Origin: Mustelus asterias
Taxonomy: Eukaryota
DNA: 64,000 bases
Direction of reading: 5' to 3'
NCBI RefSeq assembly: GCF_964213995.1
Contig: NC_135805.1
Coordinates: 74,214,001-74,278,000 of the forward strand
Made by a program: the position numbers and the translations under genes. The notes below the pieces were generated by a model that was given only the letters and a program-made list of their open reading frames with translations, had not been told where the DNA came from and ran no database searches. How positions within the stretch are numbered: the stretch's first letter is position 1; every line of letters begins with the position of its first letter. Shown in pieces: positions 1 to 50,704 of this stretch.

Positions 1-200
1 CCCGAGTCCCTGGCGCTGTGAAGCAGCAGTGCTAACCACTTGAGGAGCAATTTAGCAATTAAGGACCAGCTGTTCCCCTTGGTTGAGGGGTCAATCATGG
101 GGGGGGGGATAAGGGCAGGAAAATGGAATTAGTGTGCGTTTAATGCTAGTTATTGTCAGTGCATACTCGATGGGCCGAAGAGCCTTTTCTACATTGTATG
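1..200. mobile_element. SINE head fragment (-, 1-40) and CR1 3' remnant (+)
   Basis: tgtgaagcagcagtgctaaccac; ctcgatgggccgaagagcctttt tail. Confidence 0.65.
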
Positions 201-1303
201 ACAATGTTAGCACCCTATTTATCTCCAATTGTTGGTGATGTGAGCAGGGCATCTGGGACCTTAATGAGCAGTGGGACCAGCAGGATATCTCCATGACCAA
301 TTAAATTTAAGGATTGGGGGAAGAAAAGAGACTAGACAATGAAGAAGGGTGAGCTATAAAGGGTGTATTCTATGCCAAATCAAATACAGAAAGATAAGAG
401 ATGGAAAGGAAGATTGGTCGAAAAGATAGGGGGGAAAAAAAGAGATGAAGGAAAAGCAAGGGATTTTTAAAATTGCATTTTAAAATCTTCAATAAGTTGG
501 TACCTAGGGATTACCAAAAAGATTCTGAAGGAATGAGACTCTCCAGTTTATTTTAATATTCATTTCGGGTCAAGAGAGGCTGATTGGTAGTCATTAACAA
601 TTATCACATTGTTAAAAGGGTACTTGCACTGAATTACGAGACTTAACCTCCTTTAAGTTTAATAGGTACTGAATGCTAGAGAATTCATTAAACTGATGTA
701 AAGGTTAATGATCCTGTTTTCAAAAAATTGAAGGAGAGTTGCAAATCATCAGATGCTTGTGATTTGCAATTCAGAGGGTACTGTTCCTCCAACAAGTAGC
801 TAGTTGCTTGTATTTTTGGAATGTGTCCACACTTTTTTCAGTAAATTCTAGCCCATGTTGTTTAATAAAAACCTTTGCAGCCTTAAGGGGATATGCAATA
901 CACTTTGCTAGCTGATGCCTTGTGTTTTATATAGTATAGTTTTGCTGGCTTTCTTAAGTAGTGCACCCTATGAATTTCCATTTGCACATAAAAAAAGAAA
1001 ATGCATGTTTATAGCATCTTTCTCAACCTCGATGGCCCAAAGTAATCCGTACCCCAAGAATTACCTTTTGAAGTATGGGTATGGTAGTTACATAGGCAGC
1101 TAATTTGCACTCAGCAAAGTCATCAGTGAGACAAATGGCCAATTAATCTGGTTTAGTGGTTGACGGATAAGTTAACCAAGAACTTCCTTGCTGCTACTTC
1201 AAATAGTCATGATGTGGAGATGCCGGCGTTGGACTGGGGTAAGCACAGTAAGAAGTCTCACAACACCAGGTTAAAGTCCAACAGGTTTATTTGGTAGCAA
1301 ATA

Positions 1304-1340
1304 CCATAAGCTTTCGGAGCACAGCTCCTTCGTCAGATGG
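1304..1340 (-). ncRNA. Minimal hammerhead ribozyme motif in Penelope pLTR
   Basis: rc: CCAU CUGACGA A GGAGC UGU GCUCC GAA AGCU U AUGG. Confidence 0.8.
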
Positions 1341-2196
1341 AGTGGTTATCTGTTCTCAAACAGTGCAAACAGACACAGAAATCAAATTACAGAATACTGA
1401 TTAGAATGCAAATCTGTACAGCCAGCCAGGTCTTAAATGTACAGACAATGTGGGTGGAGGGAGCATTCAACACAGGTTAAAGAGATGTGTATTGTCTCCA
1501 GACAGAACAGCTGGTGAAATTCTGCAAGCCCAGGAGGCAAGCTGTGGGGGTTACTGATAATGTGACATAAATCCAACATCCCGGTTTAGGCCATCCTCAT
1601 GTGTGCGGAACTTGGCTATCAGTTTCTGCTCAGCGACTCTGCGCTGTCGTGTGTCGTGAAGACCGCCTTGGAGAACGCTTACCTGAAGATCCAAGGCTGA
1701 ATGCCCGTGACTGCTGACGTGCTCCCCCACAGGAAGAGAACAGTCTTGCCTGGTGATTGTCGAGCGGTGTTCATTCATCCGTTGTCGTAGCGTCTGCATG
1801 GTTTCCCCAATGTACCATGCCTCGGGACATCCTTTCTTGCAGCGTATCAGGTAGACAACGTTGGCCGAGTTGCAAGAGTAGGTACCGTGTACCTGGTAGA
1901 TGGTGTTCTCACGTGAGATGATGGCATCCGTGTTGATGATCCGGCACGTCTTGCAGAGGTTGCTGTGGCAGGGTTGTGTGGTGTCGTGGTCACTGTTCTC
2001 CTGAAGGCTGGGTAGTTTGCTGCGAACAATGGCCTGTTTGAGGTTGCGTGGTTGTTTGAAGGCAAGAAGTGGGGGTGTGGGGATGGCATTGTCTGTACAT
2101 TTAAGATCTGGCTGGCTGTAGAGATTTGCATTCTAATCAGTATTCTGTAATTTGATTTCTGTGTCTGTTTGCACTGTTTGAGAACAGATAACCACT

Positions 2197-2233
2197 CCAT
2201 CTGACGAAGGAGCTGTGCTCCGAAAGCTTATAG
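2197..2233 (+). ncRNA. Minimal hammerhead ribozyme motif (one stem I mismatch)
   Basis: ccat ctgacga a ggagc tgt gctcc gaa agct t atag. Confidence 0.72.
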
Positions 2234-2574
2234 TATTTGCTACCAAATAAACCTGTTGGACTTTAACCTGGTGTTGTGAGACTTCTTACTCTACTTCAAA
2301 TAGTGCCATGAAATGATTCACATCCAGCTGAATAGGACAGGTTTATTAATTTGTCTGAAAGATTGCATCTCTTGACTATGTAAAATTTTCTCAATTAGTC
2401 TAGATTATGTGGTCAAGTTTCATAGTGGAGTTTGAACTCAAGACCTCCAAGATAAAGGTGCTACTGCCAACCTGTAGTCACACTTGTTCTTTAGCAGGGT
2501 CACAATCTGCTTCATACCATTCTGGGGCACTGCCCCTCCCTCCAGCAAAGATATTGATGTTTTTGCAGATGCTT

Positions 2575-4285
2575 TGGGGAGTCAGGAAGCGAGTTACTCA
2601 CTGCAGTGTTCCTAGCACCTGACCTGCTGTTGTGGCCACAGTGTTTAATGTGGCGAGTCCAGTCGAGTTTCTGGTCAATGGTAACCCCAAGGATATTGAC
2701 AGTGGGGGATTCAGTGATAGTAACACCATTGAATGTCAAGGGGCAGTGGTTAGAGTGTCTCTTATTAGTGATGGTCATTGCCTGGTATTTGTGTGGTGCA
2801 AATGTTACTTGTCAGCCCAAACCTGGATATTGTCCAGATCTTGCTGCATTTGAACATGGACTTCAGTATCTGAGGAGTCGCGAATGGTGCTGAACATTGT
2901 GCAATCATCGACGAACATCCCCACTTCTGACCTTATGACGGAGGGAAGGTCATTGATGAAGCAGCTGAAGATGGTTGGGCATGGGACACTACCCTGAGGA
3001 ACTCCTGCAAATATGTCCTGGAGCTGAGATGACTGACCCTCCACAACCATCTTCGTATGTGCCAGGTATGACTCCAACCAGCGGAGAGTTTGCCCCCTGA
3101 TACCCATTGATTCTAGTTTTGCTCTGGCTTCTTGATGCCACACTCAGTCGAATGTGGCCTTGATGTCAAGGGCTGCCACTCTCATCTTACCTCTGGAATT
3201 CAGCTCTTCTGTCCATGTTTGAGCCAAGGCTATCATGAGGTCAGGGGCTGAGTGACCCTGGCGAAACCCAAACTGGGTGTTGCTGTTTGATAACACTGTT
3301 GATGACCCCTTCCATCACTTTATTGATGATCGCGTGCAGGCTGATGGGGCGGTAACTGGCCAGGTTGGATTTGTCCTGCTTTTTGTTATACAGGACACAC
3401 CTGGGCTGCTTTTTACATTATCGGGTAGATGCCAGTGTTGTAATTGTACTGGAAAAGCTTGGCTAGGGGAACAGCAAGTTCTGGAGCGCAAGTCTTCAGT
3501 ACTATTTTTGGAATGTTATCAGGGCCCATTGCCTTTGCAGTATCCAGTGCCTCCAACTGTTTCTTGATATCACGTGGAGTGAATAAAATTGGCTGGAGAC
3601 TGACATCTGATATTCTGGGGACCACAGGAGCAGGCTAAGATGGATCATCCACTTGGGACTTCTGGCTGAAGATTGCTGCGAATACTTCAGCCTTATCTTT
3701 TGCACTGATGTGCTGGGCTCCTCCCTCATTGAGGATGGGGATATTGTAGAGCCTCCTCCTCCAGTGAGTTGTTTAATTGTCCTCCACCATTCATGCCTGG
3801 ATGTGGCAGGACTAGAGCTTGAATCTGATCCGTTGGTTGTGGGATCATTTAATTTTGTCTATCTCCTGCTGTTTGGCATGCAGGTAGTCCTGTTTGGTAA
3901 CTTCATCAGATTGACACCTCATTTTTAGGTATGCTTGGTGCTGCTCCTGGCATGCCCTCCTGAACTCTCCATTGAACCAGGATTGATCTCCTGGCTTGAT
4001 GGTAATGGTTAAGTGGGGGATATGCTGGGCCAGGAGTTGCAGATTGTGCTGGAGTACAATTCTGCTGTTGATGGCCCACAGCGCCTCATGGATGCCCAGT
4101 CTTGAGTTGCTAGATCGGTTCGACGTCTGTCCCATTTAGCATGGTGATAGTGCTACACAACACGATGGAGGTTATTCTCAATGTGAAGGCGGGACTTTGT
4201 CTCCACAAGGACTGCGCAGTAGTCACTCTTACCGATACTGTCATGGACAGACGCACCTGCAGCCAGCAGATTGGTAAGGATGAGG
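2575..4285 (-). mobile_element. Degraded non-LTR retrotransposon (CR1/L2 group) ORF2 fragment
   Basis: GVPQGSVPCPTIFSCFINDLP...MFVDD and KAMGPDNIP in broken frames. Confidence 0.88.
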
Positions 4286-4303
4286 CTGGTAAGATTAGCA
4301 CTG

Positions 4304-4504
4304 TAAGAAGTTTAACAACACCAGGTTAAAGTCCAACAGGTTTATTTGGTAGTTAAAGCCATACAAGCTTTCGGAGCCCCAAGGGGCTTGGGGCTCCGAA
4401 AGCTTGTGTGGCTTTTGCTACCAAATAAACCTGTTGGACTTTAACCTGGTGTTGTTAAACTTCTTACTGTGTTTACCCCAGTCCAACGCCGGCATCTCCA
4501 CATC
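4304..4504 (+). mobile_element. Penelope-like copy B: miniature fold-back
   Basis: Near-perfect palindrome centred ~4385; TSD aagattagcactg (4291-4303, 4505-4517). Confidence 0.9.
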
Positions 4505-6073
4505 AAGATTAGCACTGACAGGGCCCTGCACAGCTGTGTCCCTGGGGGCTATAATCACCTCAGAGCCCTAGCATGGTCATCGCAGTTGTTTTCCATTTTG
4601 GAAGCCAGTAGTGATTTCTGGACATTTGATGGCCCCAGAACCAATTTAAAAATATTATAATATATTCAAATTGGTGGTAATGATCCTGATTACGTTGCCA
4701 GCAGGGAGTGGCGAAGATCTCCAAACTGTTATGGCCTCCTCGCAAGAGTTAGCAGCCATAACGAGTTTGGGTCTGCGACAAACGGGCCCAAACTGGTTAT
4801 GGCCTGTTTCTCTATTCATTTATAGAACAGGAAGGGGTTGTTTTGGTGCCCTGGCCAACATTTATCCAGCAATCAACACCACCAAAATCATACTAATTGA
4901 TCACTTAATTTATTTGTAGAACCTTGTCTGCAAGCAACCTTGTGCTTTTGCATAATGGTCACTAAACTAAAAGTAATTCACTGGCTATGAAACATGCATC
5001 AAGAGGATGTAAAAGGCCTTCAAATTCAAGATTATTTCTTTATAGCAGGAATTCAGACCAGGGACTTTAAAGACGAAACCTGTGGGAGTATCTTAAATAA
5101 TACACGTTTCAACTTTTGAAATATGCAGGAAATGATGCACAGAAACTGGCCACTTTCCAATTCATGTTTTAACTCCGTTGTAGGAATTTACTTTCTAGAG
5201 AGCTAAGTTTGCTCAAGGTTGCAGTGGTACATTTGCGGGTTTAAAAGAAATAAGTACTTAGTTTAAAGTGCTGTGGAATTACTTTTAGTTAAATCATTCA
5301 AGGTGAGAATACCTGGTGATATACACCAATGAATTTGCATTTTTTTGTTACTGCATGAAGACATGAAACAACTTGTATAGTACTGGGAATAGCTGGTCGA
5401 TAGCATTTACTTTGGTGCCCAAAGTCTCTTCATATAACCAATTCGTTATAGGGCAGAAAACTGACTGAGAGTTGAGCAAACGTAACCAACTTTTACGAGC
5501 ACAAACTGAACAAGAGTCAGTCGAAAGCAACAAGAAGCTAACATACAAATTGGAGGTTGATGCCTTTTAAATAGTGTTGGTAATGTGTTTAACAGAGGGT
5601 GTTACAGTGAGTGGCAAGATCAAAACAGGGCGTTGGGGCATTAAATCAGCATTGGACATTGACCAATGTCATAATCTAACTGTTCTCTGATTGGAAGATG
5701 CTATTTTTCACCTAACCACCACCGTATTTTGCAACCATGTACCTTAACTACTATTAAATAAATTCAGATTTAAATGCAACACTGGTTTTGCCAAAATTAA
5801 TGGCTTTAGTTGACTTATCAGGTTGCTTTGGTTTATTCTTCAAAATTGTAAATTCATTTTAGGAGATAGGCACGGAAGATAGATTTAGAAAATGTAAAAT
5901 CTAACTGAGATGAGTATTCATTTGAATAGAATTATTTTATATTTCATTTATTTATTTGAATATAAAGTTGCATGCAAATGATAAAACTTGAAAGGAGTGA
6001 TATGTTTAACTTTTGGTAAAATAAAAGCATGGTCCCACTTTTCCCGTTCCTCTGAGACTTTCGGTGTTCAGCC

Positions 6074-7766: not shown

Positions 7767-7916
7767 GTAAAGAAATTGTCATTTAAGCTATTTGAGGAAA
7801 TAAGCATGTAAACATAATTGATAGAAGAATGCAAAATTTATATGTTTGACAAGTCTTAAGAATTTAGCAATGGAATAAATACGTTTGTAAATCTAAGATT
7901 TTTGTACTCTTTGCAG

Positions 7917-8012
7917 ATATTTGGAGCATTGGCATCACATCCATTTCGATTAAGTGACCATTGTTTTGGTACAGGAGAAACCTTTCTCTACACATTCAAT
8001 CCACAGTTCAAG
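7917..8012 (+). CDS. NCOA7: NCOA7 TLDc exon (IFGALASHPFRLSDHCFGTGETFLYTFNPQFK), GC donor
   Basis: ttgcag| acceptor, 96 nt, GTGETF motif; ends AAG|gcaagt. Confidence 0.95.
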
Positions 8013-8641
8013 GCAAGTTCTTACATGTTGAAGTTTTTAGAAAGTTTGTGTAGGTGGGGGAATTTGGCTGGTGAAGACATTTTAAAAATCATCCACTTAC
8101 TCTTTAAGTTTTTAACATTAGTGAATAATTTACTGATTAGATTTACATCATGCGGTGTTAAATGCCATCTATGTATCTTAAAAGTTCTGGATCAAAGTTT
8201 GTTGGTATTATTGCCCAGTTCGGATGTTTAATTTGAGGAAAGTGTGTTTCATCAAGTATGTTAGTTACACTGTACATTTTTGTAACAAAAAAAAGAATTT
8301 CTGTAGCATTCATTTGGGAAAAGAGCTAGTTTATTGGATTCTTGCAAAGCTAATACCGTATAGCATGTATTATGCAGGAACAGAACAATGTATAGCTGAG
8401 TAGCTAAGGATGGACAACAAATGCAACCTTAGAAGTGTCATCTACATCCGAGAATGAATACTGTTTACAAAATTAGTTCCCCAGTTTAACACACATCCTA
8501 CTTGAACATTATGAAATATATCCACATTTTGGAAATGTTTAAGCACTTTAATGTATAATTGATGCAAGTAAGCTTCTATGGTATAGAAACATACAGCCTG
8601 ATTTATATGTAATATAAATTGAATATATTTTAATCCAATAG

Positions 8642-19418: not shown

Positions 19419-21476
19419 AGTGGAAATCTGCTCTCAAACAGTGCACAGAGACACAAAATCAAGTTACAGAATACTGATTAGAATGCGAATCCCTAAAGCC
19501 AGCCAGGTCTTAAAGGTACAGACAATGTGGGTGGAGGGAGCATTAAACACAGGTTAAAGAGATATGCATTGTCTCCCGACAGAACAGCTAGTGAGATTCT
19601 GCAAGCCCAGGAGGCAAGCTGTGGGGGTTACTGATAATGTGACATGAATCCAACATCCCGGTTTAGGCCGTCCTCATGTGTGTGGAACTTGGCTATCAGT
19701 TTCTGCTCAGCGACTCTGCGCTGTCGTGTGGCGTGAAGGCCGCCTTGGAGAACGCTTACGTGAAGATCCAAGGCTGAATGCCCGTGACTGCTGAAGTGCT
19801 CCCCCACAGGAAGAGAACAGTCTTGCCTGTGATTGTCGACCGGTGTTCATTCATCCGTTGTCGTAGCGTCTGCATGGTTTCCCCAATGTACCATGCCTCG
19901 GGACATCCTTTCCTGCAGCGTATCAGGTAGACAATGTTGGCCGAGTTGCAAGAGTAGGTACCGTGTACCTGGTATATGGTGTTCTCACGTGAGATGATGG
20001 CATCCGTGTCGATGATCCGGCACGTCTTGCAGAGTTGCTGTGGCAGGGTTGTGTGGTGTCGTGGTCACTGTTCTCCTGAAGGCTGCGTAGTTTGCTGCGG
20101 ACAATGGTCTGTTTGAGGTTGCGTGGTTGTTTGAAGGCAAGAAGTGGGGGTGTGGGGATGGCCTTGGGGAAATGTTCGTCTTCATCAATGACATGTTGAA
20201 AGCGATGATATTTTCTTCCTTTGGAGTCATGGTGAGCAATCACTGAAACAACTATATGATGACAGCAACAAGTTCCATCCCACCAACAGACTCACCATGG
20301 ACTACTCTCCAGAATCGGTTGCATTCTTGGACACACGCATCTCTATTAAGGACGGTCACCTCAGCACCTCACTGTACCGCAAGCCCACGGATAACCTCAT
20401 GATGCTCCACTTCTCCAGCTTCCACCCGAAACACGTTAAAGAAGCCATCCCCTACGGACAAGCCCTCCGAATACACAGCATCTGCTCGGATGAGGAGGAT
20501 CGCAACAGACACCTTCAGACGCTGAAAGATACCCTCATAAGAACAGGATATGGCGCTCGACTCATCGATCAACAGTTCCGACGTGCCACAGCAAAAAAAC
20601 CGCACCAACCTCCTCAGAAGACAAACACGGGACACGGTGGACAGAGTACCCTTCGTCGTCCAGTACTTCCCCGGAGCGGAGAAGCTACGGCATCTCCTCC
20701 GGAGCCTTCAACATGTCATTGATGAAGACGATCATCTTGCCAAGGCCACTTCTTGCCTTCAAACAACCACGCAAACTCAAACAGACCATTGTCCGCAGCA
20801 AACTACCCAGCCTTCAGGAGAACAGTGACCACGACACCACACAACCCTGCCACAGCAACCGCTGCAAGACGTGCCGGATCATCGACACGGATGCCATCAT
20901 CTCACGTGAGAACACCATCTACCAGGTACACGGTACCTACTCTTGCAACTCGGCCAACATTATCTACCTGATACGCTGCAGGAAAGGATGTCCTGAGGCA
21001 TGGTACATTGGGGAAACCATGAAGACGCTACGACAACGGATGAATGAACACCGGTCGACAATCACCAGGCAAGACTGTTCTCTTCCTGTGGGGGAGCACT
21101 TCAGTAGTCACGGGCATTCAGCCTTGGATCGTCATGTAAGCGCTCTCCAAGGCGGCCTTCACGACACACGACAGCGCAGAGTCGCTGAGCAGAAACTGAT
21201 AGCCAAGTTCCGCACACATGAGGACAGCCTAAACCGGGATGTTGGATTTATGTCACATTATCAGTAACCCCCACAGCTTGCCTCCTGGGCTTGCAGAATC
21301 TCACTAGCTGTTCTGTCTGGAGACAATACACATCTCTTTAACCTGTGTTTAATGCTCCCTCCACCCACATTGTCTGTACCTTTAAGACCTGGCTAGCTTT
21401 AGGGATTCGCATTCTAATCAGTATTCTGTAACTTGATTTTGTGTCTCTGTGCACTGTTTGAGAGCAGATTTCCACT

Positions 21477-23477: not shown

Positions 23478-23950
23478 CCTGTGTTGCAGCATTTATTGCT
23501 TTATTCTATTAGATGTCTTCTCACTTGCAGACTGAATCTTTGGACATGTATCTGCCTGTTTGTATGGGGAAAAACGTAGTCCTGCCCTCTTCACTGATGC
23601 AGCAATGAGCTTGGGGAGGCTCAACAATGGACACTAAGTACTACATATGATGAAATGCTGGGGTGACATGGCCTGGTGGTCTCAGTTCAAGGCGCTTGTC
23701 TGCAGCTAGCAGCTGTGAATGAGGTTGTCTCAAGCCTCCCAAACACATCTAAGGTCCTTGCCTCTGGTGTAGGCAGCTCATCCAACTTTCCTCCTTGCTC
23801 TATATCCTCCGCCACATATTTGGATGAGCACTTGAAATATCATAATATTCAAGGATATGGGCCGTGCAGGAAAATGGGACTATCTACCATTAGTGGTAGA
23901 TATTGTCAGTGCAAATTCGATGGGCTGAAGGGCCATGACTCTTTACTCTA

Positions 23951-24449
23951 TGACGTGGAGATGCTGGCGTTGGACTAGGGTAAACACAGTAAGAAGTCTC
24001 ACAACACCAGGTTAAAGTCCAACAGGTTTATTTGGTAGCACAAGCCACTACCTTTTAGAGCGCTGCCCCTTCATCAGGTGAGTGGGATTTCAGTTCACAA
24101 ACAGGGCATATAAAGACACAAACTCAGTTTACAAAAGGATAATTAATAAGCAATAACCAATCCAGTCAAGGACACACACCGGTTTATTTAAAAAAATTCA
24201 CATATTCTGCTTCTGCTCTCATCAGCAACTCATTTCCAGGCCGGTCGGACAGCAATTACACTCTGTAATTTCAAACCCCTCCTCACCCAGTGCAGCAGAT
24301 TATGTAAATTGAGTTTGTGTCTTTATATGCCCTGTTTGTGAACTGAAATCCCACTCACCTGATGAAGGGGCAGCGCTCCGAAAGCTAGTGGCTTGTGCTA
24401 CCAAATAAACCTGTTGGACTTTAACCTGGTGTTGTGAGACTTCTTACTG
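23951..24449 (-). mobile_element. Penelope-like copy E: inverted arms enclosing captured HINT3 sequence
   Basis: Arms 23951-24133 and 24303-24449; TSD ctttactcta (23941-23950, 24451-24460); centre is the reverse complement of 25127-25316. Confidence 0.92.
24356..24390 (+). ncRNA. Minimal hammerhead ribozyme motif, variant subfamily
   Basis: cac ctgatga a ggggc agc gctcc gaa agct a gtg. Confidence 0.78.
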
Positions 24450-24890
24450 CCTTTACTCTATAACATCCTCCTCACCGGATAAGGACTGAATCTCCTCCAA
24501 ACCTTCTGGCTGACAGGCCTCAACCCTCTGCCATATTAGGTTGTGCAGCAAGCAGCAATGATCCTGGAAACTCTCCCTGGGTTAAATTGCACAGTGTCAC
24601 GGGAGTGGTATTTACTGGAATCACATTTTGTGTAGGCCAATTGTCTGTTTAATTGCTGCATGGGCTGACCTGTTGCAGGCCCTTTCCCTTTCAAAACAAA
24701 TTGAACCTGATATTTGTTGGGACAGAAATGTCCAAGTACCAATACAGGCTGAACCCTTGACTGACCCCATGCCAGTCTAATCTCTGCATTCAGACAAACT
24801 GTCATTTAGCTGACACCGGGATGGGAACAAGCGGGTCTCCACACAACAAAATATCACCAACAAACTACCACTCTGTAAACTGGGCCGCTG

Positions 24891-24974
24891 CTCCCTGGGT
24901 TCGATTGATTGGTGCGAACCGTCTCTCTGGGTTCGATTCATTGGTGTGAAGCGAGTCTCTCTGGGTTCGATTGG
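24891..24974 (+). repeat. Three-copy ~31 bp tandem repeat carrying inverted CCAAT boxes at the HINT3 promoter/5'UTR
   Basis: ctc(c/t)ctgggttcgatt x3; ATTGG at 24908, 24940 and 24970. Confidence 0.85.
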
Positions 24975-24984
24975 CGCAGTTGCC

Positions 24985-25140
24985 ATGGCGGCGACGACTG
25001 AGGTTGAGGTCCCGGCCCAGGTCCCGGCCCGAGGAGAGGGCGAGGCGGAAACTCCAGCAGCGGCCGATGCAGAGTTTGATAAGAAATGCATCTTCTGTAA
25101 AATCGGGAATAAAGAGGAGTCGGTGGATCTGCTGCACTGG
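24985..25140 (+). CDS. HINT3: HINT3 exon 1 (MAATTEVEV...FDKKCIFCKIGNKEESVDLLHW)
   Basis: Kozak gccATGg in CpG-rich island; CIFCKI motif; TGG|gtgagg donor. Confidence 0.93.
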
Positions 25141-25966
25141 GTGAGGAGGGGTTTGAAATTACAGAGTGTGATTGCTGTCACCGGCCTGGAAATGAGTTGG
25201 AGCGAGTGTTTAACCTTTCTGCGTCGTTGCTGATGAGAGAAGAAGCAGAATGTGTGAATGTTTTTTATAAACCGGCGTGTGTCCTTGACTGGATTGGTTA
25301 TTGCTTATTAATTATCAGCTGGATCTATAACAGCTGGAATGACTGGAGTTCAGGAGCAGGGAAATATTAGGGAGAGGAAAGCTGCTGTCATCATGATCAG
25401 CTCCACTAATCCAAACCAGGATAAAACATCATGCCAAAGGGTAAACTGCATTCAACTCCTGTGCATGGAGTGTGGAAGCGGATTTAACATATCTCACCGT
25501 GCGAGTCAACATTCTCAGCAACTACTCTGATAAAGCCACAGTATTGCTTACAACTGCTGGAGAGAAACCTTCAATTAACATTAGAACATTTTACAAATCA
25601 TAAGGCGACATCTCAAAAGTGTTGCTCATGGAGTGAAACATCTCAGTTCGTTACAGAGTAAATGTTGGGCATCAAGTAGAAGGAGGTAAAACACCGTCAG
25701 AGAAAGTTTATAAAAATGATTTTGAAATTGGAGTGGGGATGTAGGGATGGACCAAAAGAATAGATGCCAGTGATGGAGTAGATGGCATCCATTACACGCA
25801 CATTTGCTTTTCAAAGATGCTGCACTTTATGTGAATGCAGTGTTAAATCTCTGCTCAGTAATACACATCCTTACTTAAACCTCCTTCAGCCATGCATCCT
25901 TGCACAAGAGACTTCCTTAGTTCCTTCTTTCTCTACTCCATCATTGGTAGCAGTTCTTTAAAAAAA

Positions 25967-28568: not shown

Positions 28569-28686
28569 GATGAGCAGTTTGCTTGTTTTAGGGACATTCG
28601 ACCTGGTGCACCCCATCATTATCTTGTTGTGCCAAGAAAACACATTGCAAATTGTAAATCTTTGAAGAAGGAGCACATATCGACAG
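28569..28686 (+). CDS. HINT3: HINT3 exon 2 (DEQFACFRDIRPGAPHHYLVVPRKHIANCKSLKKEHIST)
   Basis: ttttgtag| acceptor, G|gtgaga donor; HIT-family FxDIxPxAPxHxLVVP motif. Confidence 0.96.
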
Positions 28687-29625
28687 GTGAGATTGCATTC
28701 ACTTCATTCTTCAGATCATATTACAATGCTCTACTGCATCTTTTCTTAATTAAACCTGCTTGCAAAAGATTTACAAATGCGTTTCATGAACAGTCTTCAA
28801 AAACAAAATTCTTTAGATCAGTTACTGAAGGGCAAAAGACCAAGCTCAAATGCTGAAGAGTCGTTAGGTCCTAATTACAAATGATTCACTTGGTGGCATG
28901 TTTGCCTCCTGGTCACATCTGAGAGTCCAGTATTTCTTTCAGAAGTTTAAAATCTTAAAGCTGTATTAAAGTTCAGGTTCCAGCACAAGCTTCTGCTAGT
29001 ATCCTTGTCTTCTAAACCGCCTCTGTTGAACTGAGAGCACCCCAGGATATGGAGTAGTCTTGTATAAATGCCAACATTGACTTCTTTCTCGTGTAATATT
29101 TGACAAAATTATACCACAGTAGAGATATTTTTTATTCACACAGAATGAAGGACAGCTATATTTTGGTTAGAATTGTGGACAACCTATAGTTGCTATTTTA
29201 TTGTCTTCGGCATCCACTTTAAATCATAGTTAGCATGCATTGTGTGTGATGTTACACTGTCTTGTGCTATGTCAAAGGGGATTTATTGAATAAATTTCTA
29301 TTTGAAATACAAAGCAATCTTGTGTATTCCTTTGAATGGAATATCAGATTTCCACTGGTGGTTGTGTAATATTCTGCCCTATTATATTGCCATTATTGGT
29401 GTTCGCTCTATATTAGCAATTGAGAGGGGATGGATGGTTGGTGCTCTGCCATTTTAATCCATATCCTCATTTTGACAACACAGTTAACTACCTTAACATG
29501 TATACCGATCTATATTACAAGAGGCTCAGTAGTGGGGAGTGAGACATGGTAAGATACCCATAGATGGCCAGAATGCGATTGAAAGGCAGTTGGCAGTTAA
29601 AATGGGAAAGGACTATGTTCTAGAG

Positions 29626-30981: not shown

Positions 30982-31108
30982 GCTGGGCTTTCACTGGCCC
31001 CCATTCTGCACAATAAATCATTTGCACTTGCATGTACTGGCTCCAGCTAGTCAGATGGGATTCATATCGAGAATGGTTTACAGAGCCAATTCCTACTGGT
31101 TCATTACA
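30982..31108 (+). CDS. HINT3: HINT3 exon 4 with histidine triad ([21 protein letters not shown]...NSYWFIT)
   Basis: HLHLH triad; tttacag| acceptor, ACA|gtaagt donor. Confidence 0.97.
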
Positions 31109-40258: not shown

Positions 40259-40723
40259 TCATACCAGCAGGGTGATGAGAGCGCGATCATCCCTTCCCTG
40301 CCAAAGCATTTCCCCATCAAAGTGGACCAGACCGTGTTTCCTCGCTCGCAGCAGGATCCCCACCACTTTATTGGAAATTGTCACGTAGGCATCAAACAAT
40401 CTCCCAAAAGTTACGCAAATGTTTCCATCCGGTCCGGCTTCTCCGCACCTCCTAATAATAGAAAGCAACTCTTCGACTTCTTTCCCGACCAGGGCATGTG
40501 CATCTTTGCCCCGCTGCTCGGTCTTAGTTCCCTTCTGGGGATGCCCGTAATCTTCTCCCTCTCTCTGCAGCCGCAAAGTCACCGCATGGGAGCCACTGAA
40601 AGGATTGCACCTCTGGTACTCCCGGTGGTCATCAGCCCATTCCTGCCACTTGCGCCTCAGTCTGGCTGTTCCGTCCAGTCCCGGCGCCTCTGTCACTTTC
40701 TGATTGCCTCCACTTTCTGCCAT
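40259..40723 (-). CDS. Actin-binding Rho-activating protein (ABRA/STARS)-like Costars-domain protein, single coding exon, 154 aa
   Basis: KWQEWADDHREYQRCNPFS, DYGHPQKGTKTEQRG and VTFGRLFDAYVTISNKVVGILLRARKHGLVHFDGEMLWQGRDD are ABRA C-terminal motifs; intact ORF with in-frame TAG 11 codons upstream. Confidence 0.93.
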   Translation of the reverse strand: MAESGGNQKVTEAPGLDGTARLRRKWQEWADDHREYQRCNPFSGSHAVTLRLQREGEDYGHPQKGTKTEQRGKDAHALVGKEVEELLSIIRRCGEAGPDGNICVTFGRLFDAYVTISNKVVGILLRARKHGLVHFDGEMLWQGRDDRALITLLV

Positions 40724-41654
40724 TTGTTTCCCCCAACGTAATGTTAGGATCCTCTAATCCTGCAAGGTTTTCTCGGACATGTCTTTCCCCAGAATAACCC
40801 GCAGGCTGGACAGTCGGATTCGCTTTTATCTTGTGCACCCGCGCATCTTCTGACTGACATTGGAGAGTTGCAGCTTGGTGTTGCCTTTCCAAACCCCGGG
40901 CTGCAGCCTTGGACTGAGGGTCACCGAACCAGGGCGGGATCATTATGATTGACAGTTTAATCAGCCAATAGAAGAAGACACTCCATCAGGGCACCAATGG
41001 CGAAGAACAGAGGATGGGAGTGCCTCCTGTCCATTGGACAATGTTGTCTCCCAGTCATTCTGATAGTGCTCACAATCCCGAATTGTAGATGGAATATTCG
41101 CTCTTTAGTCTACCCGCTTCTTTTGAGTTAAATTCGCAGCTCTGCTATGCTCAGGAAGTTGGCAAGATTCAAATAGATTTGAAGCAGCGAGTTAAAAGGA
41201 AAGATTAGCATTTACATCGCAGGGCCTTGCATGACCTCAGGACGTCCCAAAATGGCAATGAAGTACTTTTAAAGTGTGCTCACTGCTGTGTTATGGAAAT
41301 GAGGACACATGGGGAAACTATTGACCAATGTCAAGGACAAACCCCATTCTTATTTGGAGAAGAATGCCTGACTGGGAGACAAACAGCCGGATAGATTCAA
41401 GTCTGACTCTAACTTTATTGGGTTCTTTGAAGTTGGAGAGAGGGTTGACGAGGGATGTTGTCCATATGAACTTTTAAAAAGCATTTGATAACATACGATG
41501 TAACAGATACACAGTGGTTGATTTGATGATCAGCCATGATCATAATGAGTGGCAGAGCAGGCTCGAAGGGCCGAACAGCCTACTCCATTTCTAGTTTCTA
41601 TATACTATGAAAGGATGAAACCTGGGCAGCATATTGAACCCTTGGCAGGGAGAC

Positions 41655-48911: not shown

Positions 48912-50704
48912 GTTCGTCTTCATCAATGACATGTTGAAGGCTCCGGAGGAGATGCCGTAGCTTCTCCGCTCCGGGGAAGTACTGGACGACGAAGGGTACT
49001 CTGTCCACCGTGTCCCGTGTTTGTCTTCTGAGGAGGTCGGTGCGGTTTTTCGCTGTGGCGTGTCGGAACTGTCGATCGATGAGTCAAGCACCATATACTG
49101 TTCTTATGAGGGCATCTTTCAGCGTCCGGAGGTGTCTGTTGCGATCCTCGTCATCCGAGCAGATCCGGTGTATACGGAGGGCTTGTCCGTAGGGGATGGC
49201 TTCTTTAACGTGTTTAGAGTGGAAACCTGAGAAGTGGAGCATCGTGAGGTTATCCGTGGGCTTGCGGTATAGTGAGGTGCTGAGGTGACCGTCCTTAATG
49301 GAGATGTGTGTGTCCAAGAATGCAACCGATTCCGGAGAGTAGTCCATGGTGAGTCTGTTGGTGGGATGGAACTTGTTGATGTCATCATATGGTTGTTTCA
49401 GTGATTGTTCGCCATAAGTCCAAAGGAAGAAAATGTCATCGATGTATCTAGTGTATAGCCTCGGTTGAAGGTCCTGTGCGGTGAAGAAGTCTTGTTCGAA
49501 CCTGTGCACGAAGAGGTTGGCATATTGAGGTGCGAATTTGGTCCCCATGGCTGTTCCGTGTGTCTGGATGAAGAAATGGTTGTTGAAGGTGAAGACATTG
49601 TGGTCCAGGATGAAGCGGATGAGTTGTAAAATTGCATCTGGAAACTGGCAGTTGTCGGCGTTGAGTACTGAGGCAGTTGCAGAAATGCCATCATCGTGGG
49701 GGATGCTGGTGTAGAGTGCCGAGACATCCATTGTGACGAGGAGTGCTCCTGATTCAACTGCTCCGGAGAAGCTACGGCATCTCCTCCGGAGCCTTCAACA
49801 TGTCATTGATGAAGACGAATATCTCGCCAAGGCCATCCCCACACCCCCACTTCTTGCCTTCAAACAACCGCACAACCTCAAACAGACCATTGTCCGCAGC
49901 AAACTCCCCAGCCTTCAGGAGAACAGTGACCACGACACCACACAACCCTGCCACAGCAACCTCTGCAAGACGTGCCGGATCATCGACACGGATGCCATCA
50001 TCTCACGTGAGAATATCAAGTACCAGGTACACGGTACCAACTCTTGCAACTCGGCCAACGTTGTCTACCTGATACGCTGCAGGAAAGGATGTCCCGAGGC
50101 ATGGTACATTGGGGAGACCATGCAGACGCTACGACAACGGATGAATGAACACCACTCGACAATCACCAGACTGTTCTCTTCCTGTGGGGGAGCACTTCAG
50201 CGGTCACGGGCATTCAGCCTCTGATCTTCTGGTAAGCGTTCTCCAAGGTGGCCTTCACGACACACGACAGCGCAGAGTTGCTGAGCAGAAACTGATAGCC
50301 AAGTTCCGCACACATGAGGACGGCCTAAACCGGGATGTTGGGTTTATGTCACACTATCAGTAACCCCCACAGCTTGCCTGCTGGACTTTCAGAATCTCAC
50401 TGGCTGTCCTGTCTGGAGACAATACACATCTCTTTAACTTGTGCTTAATGCTCCCTCCACTCACATTGTCTGTATCTTTAAGACCTGGTTGGCTGTCGAG
50501 ATTCGCATTCTAATCAGTATTCTGTAACTTGATTTTGTGTCTCTGTGCCCTGTTTGAGAGCAGATTTCCACTCCATCTGACGAAGGAGCAGCGCTCCGAA
50601 AGCTAGTGGTGTTTGCTACCAAATAAACCTGTTGGACTTTAACCTGGTGTTCTTAGACTCCTTACTGTGTTTTCCCCAGTCTAACGCTGGCATTTCCACA
50701 TCAT
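48912..50704 (+). mobile_element. Penelope-like copy F: inverted RT segment (48912-49757, -) joined to GIY-YIG + pLTR (49759-50704, +), inserted in a SINE
   Basis: MDVSALYTSIPH, QTHGTAMGTKFAP, YTRYIDDIF on -; GIY-YIG on +; actgtg on both sides and the SINE resumes at ~50709. Confidence 0.95.
50573..50609 (+). ncRNA. Minimal hammerhead ribozyme motif
   Basis: ccat ctgacga a ggagc agc gctcc gaa agct a gtgg. Confidence 0.8.

Follow-up and report, generated by a model that had tools for sequence, protein, structure and literature searches.

Templated insertions at double-strand breaks can be a product of Pol theta end joining. Comparable events have been described for retroelements, and the statements given here and below follow the accessible parts of the cited sources. 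For L1, templated insertions of nearby DNA were reported in 22 cases among about 3,600 solo insertions (bioRxiv 10.1101/2024.08.27.596794), and three further L1 insertions with nearby genomic DNA were presented elsewhere (PMC11702581). In the case of R2, cDNA ends snap back on the cDNA or on nearby rDNA (PMC11371274), and insertions at breaks in yeast frequently contain a pair of inverted pieces from a single locus (PMC11724301). With regard to Penelope-like elements, those of the EN+ group carry a C-terminal GIY-YIG with two cysteines between GIY and YIG (PMC8557442), a Penelope protein from Anolis acts on both strands by nicking and extension, with two start sites that bound the tail (PMC11167929), and minimal hammerheads, weakly active alone, are standard in Penelope repeats (PMC4209133). 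How Penelope insertion ends and why inverted arms form are described as open (PMC8557442, PMC11167929). A search of the literature on Penelope for switching of template, capture, transduction, hammerheads or occurrence in sharks, with most subscription papers and supplements outside its scope, returned no host capture at a fold-back centre and no matched arm ends. Analogous templated insertions being known for L1 and R2, this suggests that what is new here is capture at the centre of a Penelope fold-back, together with matched arm ends.

The locus discussed here lies in a 64,000-nt stretch of the Mustelus asterias contig NC_135805.1 (the window, to which bare coordinates refer). It is a single Penelope fold-back insertion, with one target duplication and one tailed arm, in which the order from left to right is target duplication, tailed arm, one extra base, inverted copy, tail-less arm and target duplication. 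The features of the insertion and of the gene next to it are as follows:

23816..23949, plus strand: older high-copy repeat fragment with a short tandem tail, the insertion target (from sequence search and contig depth), which we take to be the 3′ end of a LINE
23941..23951, plus strand: left copy of the target-site duplication, 11 nt, the last 2 nt common to the element terminus
23950..24136, minus strand: left Penelope arm, with the element sense on the minus strand, a tail of about 35 nt (23950-23985) and a broken minimal hammerhead near 24044-24081
24138..24300, minus strand: captured inverted copy of 25127-25316, with a later 30-nt deletion near 24226-24229 and the copied donor GT at 24286-24285 of the minus strand
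24299..24450, plus strand: right Penelope arm, without tail, overlapping the captured piece by 2 nt (24299-24300)
24355..24391, plus strand: minimal hammerhead motif recognised by eye from the features in PMC4209133, with the core at 24359, GAAA at 24380 and a palindromic helix III, and with no Rfam hit
24451..24461, plus strand: right copy of the target-site duplication
24985..25140, plus strand: first coding exon, with a GT donor at its end, of a HIT-family (HINT3-like) gene; run X3 has a unitig that stops at 25141
25127..25316, plus strand: source of the captured piece, the last 14 nt of exon 1 and 176 nt of intron 1
28569..28688, plus strand: part of the coding sequence of that gene further downstream (Pfam DcpS_C 3.9e-12, HIT 4.3e-7)
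30983..31108, plus strand: part of the coding sequence further downstream that contains the histidine triad (Pfam DcpS_C 2.4e-6)

The two arms are 95% complementary (23976-24136 against 24300-24460), and their limits were set from close relatives. The first-pass annotation, made from the letters alone, had seen two inverted Penelope arms inside one target duplication, and this was confirmed, the duplication being 11 nt long; the arms it had drawn are real, but the left one ends at 24136 and not at 24133, and the right one occupies 24299-24450. Its reading of the spacer as an inverted copy of the exon 1/intron 1 border of the neighbouring gene also stands (E 2e-49), as does the count of 14 copied exon bases, given that the exon ends at 25140 and the GT follows at 25141-25142. 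The 190-nt source lies 677-866 nt away from the right target duplication. Over 159 aligned bases the copy shows 4 substitutions relative to it, and the alignment has 4 gaps, one of which spans 30 nt and is bounded by two GTTG words. A search of the 3.68-Gb genome, with very common words skipped, placed the copied sequence in exactly two places, the source and the copy, and no other match was present among the surveyed loci, which excludes the spacer as a dispersed repeat or a standard part of the subfamily, the outcome that had been named in advance as a refutation. At the junctions, homology amounts to 2 nt on the right and to none on the left, where the extra base lies, and neither a poly(A) nor a splice signature is found. 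Both arms stop at the same element position (188 and 189). They differ from the column majority of the subfamily at 5 and 1 of 145 sites (the median of the relatives is 2.7%), and no ORF remains in this copy.

The element shares several traits with the EN+ elements of the Penelope/Poseidon type (PMC8557442, PMC11167929), namely an RT along with a GIY-YIG at the C-terminus in sister copies, inverted arms, a tail on one arm (30-40 bp there) and a candidate minimal hammerhead, judged by eye, in the terminal repeat. The sister copies are in the same window: RVT_1 was found above the cut-off at 49087-49794 (2.1e-8), and GIY-YIG just under it at 20494-21264 (E 2.7e-4, 21.6 bits against a cut-off of 22.6), where the translation shows both cysteines between GIY and YIG. 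The inverted 5′-truncated copy that forms terminal inverted repeats is present as well, in 148 distinct two-armed insertions with a target duplication. As in the focal insertion, where only the left arm has the tail of about 35 nt, the tail occurs on exactly one arm in 139 of 144 fold-backs, a pattern that matches the two start sites of the Anolis protein. The hammerhead had been claimed for the right arm, with a decayed counterpart on the left. By eye, the core, an extra base before stem II and the palindromic helix III are indeed recognisable in the right arm and the left one is broken, but an Rfam search gave no hammerhead match, and the single-strand fold does not favour the motif. In two Penelope subfamilies, represented at 1209-1394 and L011:4152-4325, numerous copies located on different contigs show no difference over 170-190 nt; judging by this identity, the subfamilies are very young and perhaps still active.

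A survey that covered contiguous DNA (874 kb) and some 270 further loci yielded 153 two-armed pairs with a duplication of at least 9 nt. After removal of repeats and one false pair, 148 distinct insertions remained, 22 from the contiguous DNA and 126 obtained via similarity searches, which favour arms of at least 150-190 nt, and the survey thus represents a sample and not a genome-wide count. Flanks of 1.4 kb on both sides accompany 49 of the 148, and pure-Penelope captures would be masked, so that the counts are lower bounds. Left out were two elements in a satellite (L356) and a satellite (L297), repeats of insertions already counted (L164, L252, L254), false duplications arising from the element's own end (L273, L274, L312), and SINE/LINE insertions nested inside arms (L135, L158, L188, L277, L314, L355). 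The target duplication has a modal length of 12-13 nt. Independent insertions were found to share a target word within different copies of another repeat (L189:1468, L265:1499 and L325:4820, also L097/L306 and L159/L226); they differ in arm length, the word occupies an identical or almost identical position of the repeat, and such sharing suggests preferred target sites.

At the centre, 83 of the 148 insertions have no filler, 37 have 1-9 nt, 23 have 10-49 nt and 5 have at least 50 nt. Among the fillers of 12-49 nt, 14 in number, 12 have a match to the arm ends (within 60 nt) of a quality reached by at most 2 of 60 random stretches, and most of those fillers match the host flanks no better than chance. 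Fillers of at least 10 nt are present in both symmetric and asymmetric insertions. Local capture was found in 2 of the 147 other fold-backs (95% interval 0.2-4.8%), with sources 0.5-1.4 kb away, and capture of any kind in 4 of the 147 (0.7-6.8%). In L280 (G000:C230), which has symmetric arms, the centre holds two pieces of a SINE situated 524-808 nt away, one inverted and one direct, that are 97.9% and 99.0% identical to this local SINE and at most 89% and 86% identical to the other hits compared (270 and 149, respectively). L213 (G000:C17) holds, in inverted form, 64 nt that run across the end of an older element into its unique flank, 1.36-1.43 kb away, and was found through 21 non-element bases. 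The 91 nt in L321 have their best source, at 93%, on another contig of chromosome size, with no local source, and L336 contains about 135 nt of a multicopy retrovirus-like repeat, no copy of which is present in its available flanks. The arms are unequal in L213, L321 and L336, that is, in three of the five captures. Accordingly, the earlier idea of proximity-dependent capture is upheld insofar as local capture recurs, but L321 and L336 indicate that capture is not only local.

Two long fillers were rejected as captures, the 84-nt one in L100, which is element-derived, and the 61-nt one in L082, which is a feature common to three copies. The latter piece, of 59-61 nt, is identical in three places (L082:8976-9035, L366:1500-1560 and G000:C5:57350933-57350991), and from its presence at the same Penelope position in the two copies examined it seems to be propagated by a sub-lineage. 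The piece at L336:3105-3239 belongs to a multicopy repeat with 546 candidates, and its match in L368 lies in or beside an open frame of 459 codons, presumably retroviral envelope-like.

In 52 of 144 insertions the two arms stop at matching element positions (within 20 nt), where 8.8 would be expected and the maximum in 5000 shuffles was 22; in the contiguous DNA, the ratio is 11 of 20. There is no sign bias, the tailed arm not being longer than the tail-less one. Examples are the insertion at 4297-4511 of the window and L197, L199 and L201. Penelope/Poseidon EN+ elements are described, in the accessible text of PMC8557442 and PMC11167929, without host DNA between the arms, whereas here about 3% of the fold-backs hold a non-Penelope centre piece of 64-239 nt, and about one third have arms stopping at the same position.

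Compared with the templated insertions of L1, as far as these are described in the parts of the sources at hand, the captures have in common a non-element piece of less than 250 bp inside one target duplication and a similar order of frequency. However, the element here is a Penelope and the insertions are germline events fixed across species, whereas those of L1 are somatic or induced; moreover, the piece lies here between two opposed 3′-end arms and comes from 0.5-1.4 kb away, while the L1 text places the template within 15 bp, a range that the focal source exceeds at 677-866 nt. The likeness to R2 (PMC11371274) consists of a free cDNA 3′ end that primes on cDNA, on the nearby target or on an extra template before sealing, although the R2 case, in the accessible text, concerns one cDNA at a fixed rDNA target in an engineered setting, and here there are two cDNA arms at dispersed natural sites. 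With templated break insertions (PMC11724301, again in its accessible part), the captures share fold-back copies primed on microhomology, short iterative fillers and paired inverted pieces, the difference being that the break ends are here retroelement cDNA.

The age of the capture could be followed in contigs and unitigs of four runs aligned to 23500-25900. In run X1 (organism A, possibly the assembly's own sample), separate unitigs cover the copy (24148-24287) and the source (25140-25306) with zero differences, and no unitig bridges an arm. Run X9 (organism C) has the true gene on one contig, with 66 differences in about 955 bases at the gene, and a second contig, of depth 2, in which 25127-25317 recurs as an inverted copy, with no more than 4 gap letters, followed by 18 bases and then by the left flank at 23750. 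This copy lies at the same place and has the same ends as the focal one, and it retains the 30 nt; the contig is without the left arm and without 200 nt of flank, which is best read as a later deletion. Since organism C has a copy with the same ends at the same locus, the capture is old and not a misassembly, the second refutation that had been envisaged, and is present in another species. In run X5 (organism B), one unitig enters the right arm, and 25152-25304 is covered by two unitigs (152 and 155 nt) that each retain the 30 nt and probably represent copy and source, or otherwise alleles. The 30-nt gap bounded by GTTG had been taken for part of the capture event and a signature of template switching, a reading that has to be abandoned: because the orthologous copy in C, and probably that in B, retains those bases, the loss is later than the capture, is lineage-specific and carries no capture signature.

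Across the three local cases, the arms differ at 18 of 724 sites (2.5%) and the captured pieces differ from their sources at 11 of 470 (2.3%; Fisher p=1), with arm and piece values of 2.7% and 2.5% for the focal insertion, 3.8% and 1.6% for L280, and 1.3% and 4.7% for L213. As arms and pieces are equally old and the copy is older than the split from C, the capture took place at or soon after insertion. There is some tension in these figures, since the two copies in A differ at 4 of 159 bases and A differs from C at 66 of about 955 (Poisson p=0.015), and this low divergence needs a slower A lineage or gene conversion. The findings support one Penelope insertion whose central host piece was copied locally, around the time the element went in.

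Regarding the mechanism, we think that, on balance, the centre probably arose during the joining of the two arms, when a free cDNA end copied local HINT3-like DNA in inverted form. Both target ends would have been extended into cDNA, one from the tail start and the other from an internal start, and the two cDNA ends, unable to pair, would have entered end joining of the microhomology type. As cDNA ends of the same sense have no means of pairing with each other, we infer that end joining was needed to seal the centre, and the fillers have the look of its templated scars. The right-hand end would then probably have turned back to the resected flank on its side, where some 2 nt at 25127 provided the priming match, with copying as far as 25316 and joining of the product to the left arm. 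Subsequent losses would be those of 30 nt within the copy (lineage A) and of the left arm together with part of the flank (lineage C). Either a host enzyme resembling Pol theta or the Penelope RT acting on DNA may have been the polymerase. Of relevance to a possible end joining of the Pol theta type are the junction homologies, 4 and 7 nt in L280 and 1 and 3 nt in L213 besides the 2 and 0 nt of the focal insertion, and the 12 of 14 short fillers that match arm ends. A DNA template is favoured because synthesis in L280, by any path, copies at least one piece from the strand antisense to the SINE. The RNA of that SINE does not by itself account for the L280 centre, for which a host transcript on the antisense strand is a possible template. 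Templates in trans are possible too, because the captures in L321 and L336 lack a local source. On the other side, the focal junction homology is weak, the local cases number three, one of which (the focal one) was pre-selected, and the source lies at the 5′ end of the gene, where nascent RNA exists.

According to the explanation we rank next, which we regard as unlikely though of real standing, the Penelope RT producing the left arm switched template, from the element RNA to unspliced HINT3 pre-mRNA in synthesis about 1 kb away, and copied from 25316 to 25127, the product being then joined to the right arm. Extension of the left cDNA on this pre-mRNA would yield an inverted copy just as well: the copy continues that cDNA in the polarity of a sense template and spans the unspliced exon-intron border. 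At the focal locus alone, fold-back onto the flank and a jump of the RT to pre-mRNA give the same product. The distant captures, from a multicopy retrovirus-like repeat and from another chromosome, have plausible RNA templates as well, and L1 is known to form RNA chimeras by template switching or twin priming (PMC13174262, PMC11702581, in their accessible parts). Nascent RNA had been one of the two templates proposed in the first-pass annotation. However, orientation cannot decide in a two-armed element, where either orientation fits one of two opposed cDNAs, and the polarity of the copy was for this reason discarded as evidence. L280, as set out above, also speaks against it, as do L213, which copies an old junction of element and flank, and junctions free of poly(A) and splice signatures.

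A plain palindromic fold-back could, alternatively, have been inserted first, its centre breaking later by hairpin or cruciform cleavage and being repaired with a templated nearby copy. The matched arm ends of the focal insertion, of L280 and of the 52 insertions mentioned would agree with such a history. We nevertheless judge it improbable, given that the captured pieces are no younger than the arms, that the copy predates the split from C with arms so close to the subfamily majority, which leaves little time, that L213, L321 and L336 have unequal arms, and that fillers of at least 10 nt are found in symmetric and asymmetric insertions alike. Finally, an inverted copy independent of Penelope, or an assembly error, with arms that flank it by separate insertion or chance, would fit the C contig of depth 2 (its copy joined to the left flank without a left arm, its first 60 bases unplaced) and the fact that none of the contigs listed bridges an arm-spacer junction, but it is very improbable in view of the 11-nt duplication exactly at both outer ends, the canonical tail pattern, the absence from C of the left duplication in the older repeat tail too, so that one later deletion accounts for both losses, the two versions in X1 as separate unitigs without differences (X1 maybe being the assembly's own sample), and the B unitigs, one entering the right arm and two over the copied stretch.

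Having preferred copying from local DNA for the focal centre, we put forward a broader proposal only tentatively and consider it rather less than probable: Penelope would extend both target ends at once, and the central gap would routinely sample nearby single-stranded DNA or RNA, the RT jumping onto nascent host transcripts in the present case. If so, and if the 874 kb with their 22 two-armed insertions are typical, the genome would hold about 90,000 fold-backs and about 150-4,500 local captures, which would make up a fossil record of germline neighbourhoods and a read-out of the second half of Penelope integration. Fold-back centre junctions constitute a large natural sample of the final step of Penelope insertion; they present short templated fillers, occasional local or distant host capture, and arms stopping together beyond chance. 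Capture in fold-backs is also a route by which small inverted duplications, splice donors included, come to lie beside genes.

We take the gene beside the insertion to be HINT3. An Atlas search gave a DcpS_C cluster at 0.90, without gene name, and a PDB search with one exon gave no match. The copied splice donor on the minus strand is intact. A regulatory use of the inverted repeat, the donor copy or the hammerhead is not supported: there is no sign of it, the copy has lost 30 nt in A, and the left arm is gone in C. The product of the insertion is most likely a neutral fossil, because copy and arms decay at ordinary rates. Run X3, whose kind is unrecorded, has no cover over the spacer or over 24472-24552, which is not evidence either way. 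Within 24599-25441, a unitig of the same run extends from 24599 up to 25141, where the exon ends, and a second, thinner unitig passes into the intron, the pattern of spliced and unspliced RNA; X1, too, breaks at 25141. Just upstream of the ATG (24889-24975), three similar units of 16-18 nt with a spacing of 32-34 nt are each followed by ATTGG, presumably reverse CCAAT boxes with a role in the promoter. Elsewhere in the window, a frame of 164 aa (40259-40753, minus strand) and an exon (7860-8231, plus strand) bear putative family resemblances, the former to the actin-binding Rho-activating (Costars) family and the latter to a TLDc domain (NCOA7-like), NCOA7 being a neighbour of HINT3 in other vertebrates.
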